Part shown: piece by piece, positions 10,617 to 12,544 of the stretch
How positions within the stretch are numbered: the stretch's first letter is position 1
How the letters are laid out: every line of letters begins with the position of its first letter
Assembly: GCA_965218435.1 (NCBI GenBank)
Contig: CBDCKW010000009.1
Coordinates: forward strand, 3,776,001-3,840,000
Source: Truepera sp.
GTDB taxonomy: Bacteria; Deinococcota; Deinococci; Deinococcales; Trueperaceae
Length of the DNA: 64,000 nucleotides
Direction of reading: 5' to 3'
Position numbers and translations under genes: made by a program
Notes under the pieces: generated by a model
The model's input: only the letters and a program-made list of their open reading frames with translations
Told to the model about the DNA's origin: nothing
Databases searched by the model: none

Positions 10617-11969
10617 TCAGTTCTGTAAGGTCTCGAGCACCGCTTCAGCCGTCTGACGTGCGTCTCTGACAGTATCGTTGACTCCTACCCCGTGATAGGC
10701 GTTGCCGGTTAAAAAGATAGGATACCCAGTGAGGGCACCCTTCGCCCTTTTAACCCTCCCCAAATGCCCCAGTTCATACTGCGGAATCCCTTTAGGCCAC
10801 GGGACGTGTTCGACAAACTCCGGTTCTGCGACAATCCCCATCGTGACGCGCAAATCGCGGCGCACCGCCGCCAGCGCCTCACCCGGCGACAAGGCGGCAA
10901 ACTCGGGGTCAACGCTGCCCCCGGCGATAATCCGTAAAAGTACCCGCCCGTTCGGGGCTTGACCGGGGAAAATTGACGAGCTGTAAAGGACACCCAAAAC
11001 CCGGACGCCTTCACCCCTCGGAACGAGGAACCCGAAGCCGTCTAGGGCGTTGGGTACATCAATCCGGTGGTAACCGAGGCCGAAAACCTGTACGTCGGCG
11101 TGAGGGATGCTGCGCAAAGCTACTGCCGCGTCTGGAGCAAAGGGATTGACGAACTCGGCTGAAATAAATGACGGGGTAGCTAGCACGACAGCATCAGCTT
11201 CTAAGCGTTCGCCCGAAACCGTAATCTCGAGAGCTTGTTCGGTAGGTCTAAGCTGCTGCACCGTAACGCCTGTCTCGAGCCTCCCGGTAAACTTTTCCTG
11301 TAACGTTTCAACCAGCACCCCACTCCCACCTGGAAAGCTCGTCAGGCGTGTGGGTTGATCAGGCTCAGAACTTTCTTTAGCTGCCCGTTGCTGACTAATT
11401 AAACCTCGGACTAGACTGCCGTACTGACGCTCGAGCGCCCGAAATCTCGGAAAAAGGGCGTCTAAACTGAGCTTTTTTGCGTCGCCTGAGGTGATGCCTA
11501 AAACGAACGGTCCCGCAAACACGTCGGCAACACCGCGCCCGAAGTGCCGCGCCATAAAGTCATACACCGTTTCCTCGCCGCTGTGCGCGCGGCCCAGTAT
11601 AGGTTCGGCGGCGGCGCGAAGTTTCTCGGACGGGAGAAGCAAGTTAGACGTTAAAAAAGCAGGCGGTGAGGCGGGCAGTTTTTGTAGTGCGCCGTTTTTG
11701 TACAAAAAGCGGTATTTGGCAACCTCGGCAACCTCACGCAGCCCCAACCCTAACTTACGCGCTAGTTCAAGCGTGTCAGGCACACTCGGCAAAAAGCCGT
11801 TGGCTGCCCAGTCCACCGTGTAGCCGTCCCTAAAACTCGAGCGGACTTTACCGCCCGCCTCGGGGTCTTTCTCGAGCACCGTAAGCTTCAGCTCGGGCCG
11901 CGCCTGCTGCAAAAAAAAAGCGGTGCTAAGACCCGCGAGTCCGCCCCCGATAATGACAATCTGCTTCAC
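10617..11969 (-). CDS. hemG: Protoporphyrinogen/coproporphyrinogen oxidase (HemY type)
   Basis: IIGGGLAGL FAD motif, GFGFLVP, IPQYELGH, GNAYHGVGVND; start reassigned to GTG 11969 after TATCCT -10. Confidence 0.92.
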   Translation of the reverse strand: MKQIVIIGGGLAGLSTAFFLQQARPELKLTVLEKDPEAGGKVRSSFRDGYTVDWAANGFLPSVPDTLELARKLGLGLREVAEVAKYRFLYKNGALQKLPASPPAFLTSNLLLPSEKLRAAAEPILGRAHSGEETVYDFMARHFGRGVADVFAGPFVLGITSGDAKKLSLDALFPRFRALERQYGSLVRGLISQQRAAKESSEPDQPTRLTSFPGGSGVLVETLQEKFTGRLETGVTVQQLRPTEQALEITVSGERLEADAVVLATPSFISAEFVNPFAPDAAVALRSIPHADVQVFGLGYHRIDVPNALDGFGFLVPRGEGVRVLGVLYSSSIFPGQAPNGRVLLRIIAGGSVDPEFAALSPGEALAAVRRDLRVTMGIVAEPEFVEHVPWPKGIPQYELGHLGRVKRAKGALTGYPIFLTGNAYHGVGVNDTVRDARQTAEAVLETLQN

Positions 11970-12101
11970 CCATCCAGGATACTCCGCAGCAAGTAGCATC
12001 TGGGAAGTGACGCCTTCAGTTTGAGATTTACTGATCAATAGGCGCGTTCCTAAAATGACAGTTGTAGCCGGTACTCGCGGATATGCTGGCGGGAAAAAGC
12101 C

Positions 12102-12133
12102 AAAAAACAACCCGGAGCCTTATGCTCCGGGCT
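12102..12133 (-). terminator. Rho-independent terminator
   Basis: AGCCCGGAGC-ATAAG-GCTCCGGGTT followed by GTTTTTT on the minus strand. Confidence 0.85.
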
Positions 12134-12261
12134 GGGTACCCATCCGGTTCTGAGGATAACTGATGCCACGCCTCAAAACGGAACTATGGTCAGTTACCCT
12201 AGACGGGTACCTCCACTGGTCTGTTTCTTTTGTAAAATTAGGACCACCTCCTTTCTGTGGT
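12102..12261 (-). ncRNA. Candidate structured sRNA with extended Shine-Dalgarno-like 5' end
   Basis: -10 TACAAT at 12273-12268; AGAAAGGAGGTGGTCC near the 5' end; several internal stems; intrinsic terminator at the 3' end; no AUG ORF. Confidence 0.6.
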
Positions 12262-12544
12262 AAAAAGATTGTACAGCAAAAAAGTCCGGGGGATGTGTTA
12301 TTCATTACGTTTTGGTGGTGAGGTCGGTTTAGGTTTACAAAAGGCTCGAGCTATCCCGTCTCGGACGGAAGTTCTCCGGTAGAGGTCGCTCTGATTGTAC
12401 CTAGGTATATTCCGTAAATCTATGTATAAAAGCCGTAGATAAAGGCTGTGCTGAAGCTCAGCCCTAATCAGCCTGCAACCGGCGCGGCTGTCGGGTAAGG
12501 CTCGAGGACATCTGCCCCGGTTCGTGCGCTCTATACTTTTGTCA

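Follow-up and report, generated by a model that had tools for sequence, protein, structure and literature searches.

A predicted small RNA of Truepera sp. with an extended Shine-Dalgarno sequence and a conserved near-cognate mini-ORF: a Deinococcales relative of Ms_IGR-5

Ms_IGR-5 (Rfam family RF02471) was known before the present study as an actinobacterial small RNA (sRNA) that is held in Rfam without an assigned function. It is an RNA-seq-validated sRNA of Streptomyces lividans according to table 2 of PMC8079986, and in S. avermitilis it forms an sRNA transcription unit of its own, according to PMC8780764. Significant ribosome footprints were reported on MS_IGR-5 homologs in Mycobacterium abscessus and M. 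smegmatis (PMC4974804). Expression of the alphaproteobacterial sRNA CC2171 (RF01867) in both Caulobacter and Methylorubrum, with validation by Northern blotting in the latter, is stated in a preprint (bioRxiv 10.1101/2022.01.24.477521). The present study concerns an RNA encoded on the minus strand of a 64,000-nt stretch of the genome of Truepera sp. (contig CBDCKW010000009.1, positions 3,776,001 to 3,840,000; hereafter the window, in which position 1 is the first base). This RNA begins with an extended Shine-Dalgarno (SD) sequence that complements the 3' end of 16S rRNA. In the literature on Ms_IGR-5/RF02471, CC2171, and sRNAs that sequester the anti-SD sequence, supplements aside, we found no function assigned. 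A TRIC-seq preprint was set aside because it deals with the pre-16S rRNA 3' extension rather than this RNA.

The identification of the window RNA as the Deinococcales branch of a multi-phylum family, the actinobacterial form of which is Ms_IGR-5, is well supported. Both RNAs carry a 5' ACAC/ACCAC clamp and show GRAAGGAGGUGRUCC between two helices, and in both the clamp helix joins the 5' end to the bases before a second SD (CCAC/GUGG in the window). The extended SD (GGAAGGAGGUGGUCC) is followed by a hairpin, which holds a start-site codon in its loop, and then by a second (G)GAGGU, the GGU of which begins a long-range helix. A fixed stop codon is found 5-6 codons later, together with an A/U-rich stretch resembling ..AAUYCC and an adjoining terminator. 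A stand-alone transcript has been published for Ms_IGR-5, whereas that of the window form is predicted from a promoter box, a terminator, and unrelated neighbors.

No matches at the gathering score were obtained with Rfam in the whole 64-kb window. The window RNA scored 19.8 bits (E 0.026) against RF02471, the gathering score of which is 45 bits, and was aligned across the whole model. The positive controls scored 175.8 (Mycobacterium), 95.2 (Micromonospora), and 95.2 bits (Streptomyces). Two bridge clades, Methylomirabilis (67.7 bits) and Polarisedimenticolia (51.6 bits), were over the cut-off; two further loci of Acidobacteria scored 12.7 and 15.5 bits. The gathering score was not reached by L144 (Terriglobia-type), L147 (Pyrinomonadaceae), L109 (Gaiellaceae), or L162 (Deinococcaceae-like). 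Since 19.8 bits compares with a threshold of 45 bits, we regard the window RNA as an unannotated divergent branch. An earlier reading of this DNA from its letters (the sequence-only reading) had left room for an RNA outside the described Rfam families. This holds at the gathering score, but not for the architecture, which is shared with RF02471 and is carried by bridging members that exceed the cut-off. The RNA is, therefore, a divergent relative of a known sRNA and not an orphan.

The extended SD complement is real and not a product of chance. This element (SD1, or super-SD) reads AGAAAGGAGGUGGUCC (AGAAAGGAGGTGGTCC in DNA), lies at 12256-12241 on the minus strand, and complements the whole free 16S tail (GGAUCACCUCCUUUCU). 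The single 16S gene detected in the host genome ends in ...GGATCACCTCCTTTCT, and the 16-mer therefore pairs with the tail of its own ribosome across 16 bp, including one G-U, at -27.8 kcal/mol; the sequence-only reading had proposed this pairing, with its one G-U, for a typical 16S tail. The runner-up 16-mer on either strand of the window reached -19.7 kcal/mol against the 16S tail, and shuffled 16-mers (n=1000) showed a mean of -8.1 and a minimum of -20.8 kcal/mol. The 12-mer AAGGAGGTGRTC has two occurrences in the 4.8-Mb genome, namely, this locus and the antisense of the 16S tail. The SD1 motif was invariant across the family alignments.

SD1 is framed by helices that are conserved in relatives, as is SD1 itself. 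RNAalifold on alignment A1 placed the SD1 core (GAAAGGAGG) in a bulge between P0a (CCAC/GUGG) and P0b (UGGUC/GACCA), and also recovered a long-range helix, P1 (GGURCCCGYC/GRCGGGYACC). In the window, the 5' strand of P0a occupies the extreme 5' end (12260-12257, minus strand, as for all parts of the RNA) and its partner GUGG lies at 12216-12213. The 5' strand of P0b (12246-12242) consists of the last SD1 bases, and its 3' strand (12221-12217) closes the hairpin with the start codon in the loop. The 5' strand of P1 (GGUACCCGUC, 12211-12202) covers codons 10-13 of the mini-ORF (open reading frame) described below, while the 3' strand (GAUGGGUACC, 12144-12135) closes the variable 3' domain and abuts the terminator.

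The support for P0a came from alignment A2, which comprises 130 distinct 5' domains from 4 phyla. P0a (columns 3-6 with 78-81) was paired in 98.3% of cells, 145 of which were compensatory. Compensatory changes occurred in 3/4 pairs, and one pair was found as CG 58, GC 46, UA 11, and AU 8 times. The covariation score was 0.722, compared with 0.149 in shuffled alignments (0/500 reached the observed value) and at most 0.164 in slid registers. P0b pairs were kept in 36-40 of the 40 type-B rows of A2 (25/40 at one position). In P1, one R:Y pair covaried among 20 sequences (AU 8, GC 7, GU 4), and the strands are clade-specific yet complementary, e.g., GGUGGCUGUC/GACAGCCACC and GGUACCAGCG/CGCUGGUAAC. 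The ungapped search for P1, which allowed G-U, had a high background (9.2 vs 8.6 pairs) and provides examples only; P1 was apparently misplaced in L020 and L126.

The 168-nt transcript folded at -67.8 kcal/mol (z = -5.09), and none of 200 shuffles was equally stable. The SD1 core had a predicted unpaired probability of 0.93, compared with 0.06 for UGGUC and 0.20 for the second SD (SD2), which is buried at the P0a/P1 junction in the folded RNA. The 5' half was almost invariant among homologs, and the middle of the 3' domain was variable. The long stem of the sequence-only reading was recovered; its 3' arm reads GGAUGGGUACC and not GGAUGGUACC.

The mini-ORF threads these elements together. In the window RNA, no ATG, GTG, or TTG was found at a usable distance after SD1. 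The ORF at 12238-12194 comprises 14 sense codons and a stop (AUU UUA CAA AAG AAA CAG ACC AGU GGA GGU ACC CGU CUA GGG UAA), with AUU at 12238-12236 and UAA at 12196-12194. Its product is ILQKKQTSGGTRLG if AUU is read literally; the initiator tRNA would give N-formylmethionine (fMet) at this position. The ORF passes first through P0b and P0a (their 3' strands), then through SD2 and the 5' strand of P1, and its stop codon lies inside P2. SD2, the second GGAGGU (GGAGGT in DNA; 12214-12209), is located within the ORF, 12 nt upstream of the stop, and was invariant in the family alignments. The sequence-only reading had stated that no AUG follows the SD and that only an AUU-initiated frame of 14 codons is available, which we confirmed; we also found that the position, frame, and stop are conserved.

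All 20 family sequences carried ATT, ATA, or ATC 7 nt (6 nt once) past GGAGGU, in frame to UAA or UAG, and shared the downstream frame ..AGU GGA GGU RCC CGY CNN GGG followed by the stop. The spacing between SD1 and SD2 was 38 nt in 14 sequences and 32, 35, 41 (three times), or 37 nt in the others, and the length of the variable part of the ORF changed by -6, -3, or +3 nt. The ATT frame is kept because the single 1-nt deletion falls between the SD and ATT. The set of Deinococcales-type sequences had an ATH start in 23/23 and a canonical start in 1/23, with the stop 6 codons past the xGU codon in 23/23. Within the ATH codon, A is nearly invariant and U is invariant in a loop that is otherwise variable. 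Three Deinococcaceae-like relatives from the sister family f2 (L162-L164; genomes G145, G097, and G123, all of genera other than g21) have CUG at +7; their SD1 reads GGAAGGGAGGUGAUCC. Therefore, the start-site codons seen in Deinococcales are all one base from AUG.

Canonical start codons prevailed outside Deinococcales. With the reading frame set by the xGU codon that precedes (G)GAGGU, ATG, GTG, or TTG was present 4-15 nt after SD1 in 108/108 distinct non-Deinococcales sequences; in the other two frames, a canonical start was found in only 14 and 2 sequences. All 108 frames were open through SD2, and the stop was exactly 5 codons past xGU in 107/108. Other coding candidates were rejected. 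GUG inside the SD (GGAG GUG) directly abuts the SD and does not share the frame in L015. Codons of the form xTG that lie in frame 22 nt past the SD are not conserved, being present in a subset of members. The overlapping ORFs (61 aa on the minus strand and 52 aa on the plus strand) have no Pfam match, and the frame VEVPV.. has no fixed stop in homologs.

A third subtype was noted among Gaiellales/Thermoleophilia and other Actinomycetes metagenome-assembled genomes (MAGs; L044, L046, L089-L093, L101, L104, L109, L127, L132-L136, and L139). It combines a Deinococcales-like SD2 (AGUGGAGGU, peptide ..SGG..) with a GTG, TTG, or ATG start and a stop 5 codons past xGU, and is intermediate between the actinobacterial and Deinococcales forms.

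The window RNA is well supported as a single-copy RNA of approximately 160 nt with its own predicted transcription signals. The -10 box TACAAT lies at 12273-12268. It was absent from the output of a generic sigma-70 scan of the window because there is no -35 match; however, a TAnnnT hexamer ends 5 nt (6 nt once) upstream of the base preceding ACCAC in 20/20 family homologs. The transcript is predicted to start at approximately 12262-12261, immediately upstream of CCAC. It would end at an intrinsic terminator, in which a 5-nt loop caps an 11-bp stem with 8 GC pairs (12134-12108) and a T-run comes next (UUUUUU in the RNA; 12107-12102), and hairpins with a U-rich tail were found at the matching place in homologs. 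The -10 box, the 16-nt complement, the second GGAGGU, the stems, the alternative pairing, and the terminator of the sequence-only reading were all located on the minus strand. Its proposal of a stand-alone unit also agrees with the fixed distance of TAnnnT, the terminators of the homologs, and the flanking genes, which differ and are often convergent. We regard the interpretation given in that reading as supported in part.

By BLAST, one copy was detected in the host genome and one copy each in 19/24 other genomes of the same family; no copy was found in 16 genomes from four sister families. R1, a covariance model of the 5' domain, was applied to genome samples. It detected one copy in each of 12/12 genomes of the same family (f1) and matches in 4/82 genomes of family f2 (0/77 in genus g21 and 4/5 in the remaining genera), 0/48 of family f4, 0/8 of family f3, and 11/101 of the Acidobacteriota sample. 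Among the f2 matches, the start codon was obtained from L162-L164, and the fourth locus, L165, was unparsed. Since the weak Rfam matches Ms_IGR-5 and CC2171 share the super-SD at the start of their models, we also scanned 185,579 species genomes for the clamp and SD1 followed by a 15-45-nt gap and GU(N)GAGGU. This pattern had at least 118 loci, with approximately 2 expected by chance (an estimate). Among the matches listed were Actinomycetota (including Mycobacterium, Streptomyces, Micromonospora, Nocardioides, Rhodococcus, and Gaiellales), Acidobacteriota (Terriglobia, Blastocatellia, Pyrinomonadaceae, and Polarisedimenticolia), one Methylomirabilis MAG (Methylomirabilota), and Trueperaceae and Deinococcales MAGs.

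The genes around the RNA are not conserved. Upstream is a divergent SCO1/SenC gene or a gene for a membrane Fe-S protein, the latter identified by reading of the sequence and not by Pfam. Downstream, a HemY-like amine-oxidase gene is present in only four loci of the genus, and the other loci have either a gene for MscL, for a thioesterase, or for a GGDEF protein or else a convergent gene (also by reading and not by Pfam). Conserved neighbors were found neither within the family nor across three actinobacterial loci, which argues against a cis-acting leader. In the window, the ORF of the HemY-like flavin amine oxidase (10617-12110, minus strand; 497 aa) begins inside the terminator region of the RNA, and its Rossmann motif starts from approximately residue 50. 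The true start is probably ATG near 11996 or GTG near 11972, approximately 100-130 nt past the terminator. In the divergent intergenic region upstream of the RNA promoter, a GC hairpin followed by UUUAUCU (12436-12490, minus strand) may be a terminator-like element; its SorY match is at the chance level (20.2 bits vs a 111-bit cut-off). The weak SorY, mir-890, and sR38 matches were rejected as chance, being elsewhere or on the opposite strand.

The 3' domain offers alternative pairings. P2 (GGGUAACUGA, 12199-12190, with UCAGUUAUCC, 12163-12154) holds the last sense codon and the UAA stop in its 5' strand, and is present in the minimum-free-energy and centroid folds of the window RNA. The CC of its 3' strand and the following UCAGAACCGG may pair instead with CCGUUUUGAGG (12181-12171), giving the alternative pairing CCGUUUUGAGG/CCUCAGAACCGG, which overlaps P2. 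Across 23 sequences, the pairing of the stop-codon segment with the 3' segment had a mean of -9.0 kcal/mol, compared with -5.8 kcal/mol for a shuffled partner. In 17/23 members, the 3' segment has two alternative partners, the stop-codon or the middle segment, each at -6 kcal/mol or below.

Several further features of the 3' domain were observed. Several clades have, before the closing strand of P1, a short unpaired A/U-rich stretch with CC(A) at its end; it lies at 12145-12153 (minus strand) in the window, where it reads CUCAGAACC, and is CAAUNCCA in relatives and GCGAAUYCC in Actinobacteria. The Pyrinomonadaceae/Blastocatellia loci L037, L059, L115, and L137 contain a hairpin loop that resembles the 16S tail (ACCUUCUUUCC or CUCCUCCUUUCC) in the variable 3' domain. 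Since this loop complements the SD1 bulge within the same RNA, it may serve as a built-in mimic of the anti-SD. High-GC members of Trueperaceae carry GGACCGCCUCC, which is complementary to GGAGGUGGUCC.

We lean toward the view, which we hold to be somewhat better than evenly balanced, that this is a ribosome-engaging RNA and that translation of the mini-ORF unzips and resets its fold. A 30S subunit would be captured by the bulged super-SD, and extension of the pairing into UGGUCC would melt P0b and set AUU in the P site. Because AUU is near-cognate, slow initiation that responds to initiation fidelity (IF3) is to be expected. The 30S subunit would dwell at the 5' end and may also shield the RNA. 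Each round of translation would unzip P0, SD2, and P1. At the stop codon, the anti-SD could pair with SD2, 9 nt upstream of the P-site codon, and the 3' domain would then switch partner between the stop-codon segment and the middle segment. The RNA may thus toggle between a folded and a ribosome-opened state. We speculate that the output is the state of the RNA (its lifetime or the exposure of its 3' domain) and not the peptide, because peptides differ between clades while the RNA motifs persist.

Several points weigh against this mechanism. The rule that the ORF changes length in multiples of three rests on only approximately 3 to 5 independent indels. In ACC AGU GGA GGU, no third codon position varies, which indicates selection on the RNA sequence; structural spacing alone could keep the frame. 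Many members fold the SD1 core onto an internal CCUCC-like stretch (median unpaired probability, 0.39; lowest, 0.06), and an open SD is, therefore, not general. In members with this predicted pairing, SD1 may be gated. The energies of the proposed switch are modest, at -9.0 vs -5.8 kcal/mol with the shuffled partner. Footprints on structured sRNAs may be artifacts, a question that PMC4974804 itself raises. Furthermore, we infer transcription, 30S binding, and translation in the window organism from the sequence, which links the RNA to no target or phenotype.

Among the alternatives, we give some weight, although it is unlikely, to a 5' stabilizer of the STAB-SD type. The cry3A STAB-SD is believed to retain a 30S subunit as a block to 5'-to-3' decay (Agaisse and Lereclus 1996; Mathy et al. 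2007; PMC4113751). By analogy, the super-SD would park a 30S subunit against such decay, the 3' domain would act as an effector on other RNAs, and the mini-ORF would not be productively translated. In the window RNA, 5 nt separate the SD from the predicted 5' end, the SD matches the 16S tail in the manner of STAB-SD (PMC4113751), the 5' end is clamped in a helix, and Deinococcales forms lack a canonical start except for 1/23. However, a stabilizer does not account for the invariance of AU of the ATH codon within a variable loop, the retention of the frame and stop in 23/23, or the canonical start in 108/108 sequences of other clades, and the low conservation of the 3' domain, the least conserved part, is unexpected for a seed region. 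A doubtful alternative is a ribosome decoy or sponge, in which an mRNA mimic titrates the anti-SD of 30S or 70S ribosomes and translation of the mini-ORF serves as release. Such a sponge would lower SD-led translation and favor leaderless mRNAs. The 16-bp match at -27.8 kcal/mol, far beyond other sites in the window, and the position of SD2, which is suited to hold a terminating ribosome, are consistent with this explanation. Members of the family are found in phyla with a known abundance of leaderless mRNAs. However, there is a single gene copy per genome, and the abundance of the RNA would have to approach the number of ribosomes. The RNA was also not found in 77 genomes of genus g21 and 48 of family f4, two groups from the same leaderless-rich order, and is present in only 11/101 sampled Acidobacteriota.

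A related and quite doubtful idea is that the family is the ribosome counterpart of 6S RNA, namely, a mimic of a start site that would capture 30S or 70S ribosomes through the whole free 16S tail and be released by read-out of the mini-ORF. By this analogy, SD2 would hand the terminating ribosome back, and the near-cognate start (AUU, AUA, AUC, or CUG) would tie release in Deinococcales to initiation fidelity. The RNA would then gate the pool of ribosomes with a free anti-SD and tilt the balance between SD-led and leaderless translation. We attach very little probability to a micropeptide gene, in which the 14-residue product (..TSGGTRLG) is functional and the RNA structure tunes its synthesis. 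The frame, start position, and stop are conserved, as is the C-terminal SGG(A/T)R(R/L)G within the family, but the conserved residues are exactly those encoded by the helix strands and SD2. Moreover, synonymous positions are invariant, and the peptides are clade-specific (..TREVAAR, ..RPGEVAET, ..SGGTSG, and ..SGGARRG) while the RNA motifs persist. It is hardly credible that the RNA acts in cis, as a leader or attenuator, on the protoporphyrinogen-oxidase-like gene downstream (10617-12110, minus strand). This gene is on the same strand, with the terminator approximately 100-130 nt upstream of its likely start, and the same gene is found downstream in L002-L004 of the genus. However, L005 of the same genus has no such downstream gene, the genes listed above replace it in other genera, the actinobacterial neighbors also differ, and the sequence, as inspected rather than formally tested, shows no evident antiterminator pairing.

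The present study extends the design of Ms_IGR-5 to Deinococcota, Acidobacteriota, and Methylomirabilota. It also adds a covarying clamp that presents a bulged super-SD, a mini-ORF with a fixed stop in every member, and the replacement of canonical start codons by near-cognate ones throughout one order. These results provide a testable picture of an RNA whose design apparently serves to engage the ribosome itself and not another mRNA, and the natural set of start-codon variants is available for testing this engagement. If ribosome capture is true, it would represent a new global layer of translation control in leaderless-rich phyla; if it is false, the RNA nevertheless offers a clear example of a conserved mini-ORF with a non-AUG start.

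The comparison with known systems defines the place of the window RNA. infC, which encodes IF3, is the textbook case of autoregulation through an AUU start. By analogy, infC and the window RNA share a conserved near-cognate AUU, the use of which should depend on discrimination by IF3; infC encodes IF3 itself, whereas the window ORF has 14 codons and lies on an sRNA. STAB-SD and the window RNA each have, close to the 5' end, an SD-like sequence complementary to the 16S 3' end. However, STAB-SD is part of a long mRNA, in the leader, and does not direct initiation, while SD1 heads a predicted stand-alone RNA. Unlike STAB-SD, SD1 is flanked by covarying helices and followed by a conserved start-like codon and mini-ORF. 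The model of CC2171 begins with GAAAGGAGGUGAUCC and ends in a terminator, like the window RNA, a likeness drawn via the model only; the window RNA scored 16.4 bits against RF01867, below the gathering score of 75 bits, with the match limited to the SD and a GC stem. A second weak match to CC2171 in the genome (L148) was judged unrelated, being coding-like, with neither a complement of the 16S tail nor AAGGAGGTGRTC. Ms_IGR-5 is described by a model, RF02471, from which the mini-ORF is absent, as is the P0a clamp in the form drawn here. The two forms differ in the sequence of P1 and in SD2 (GUGGAGGU in the window and GUGAGGUG in Ms_IGR-5). The mini-ORF of Ms_IGR-5 has a canonical start and a stop 5 codons past xGU, whereas that of the window has AUU at +7 and a stop after 6 codons, with one extra codon after SD2. 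The window branch as a whole uses AUU, AUA, or AUC (CUG in three relatives) where the Ms_IGR-5 form uses AUG, GUG, or UUG.

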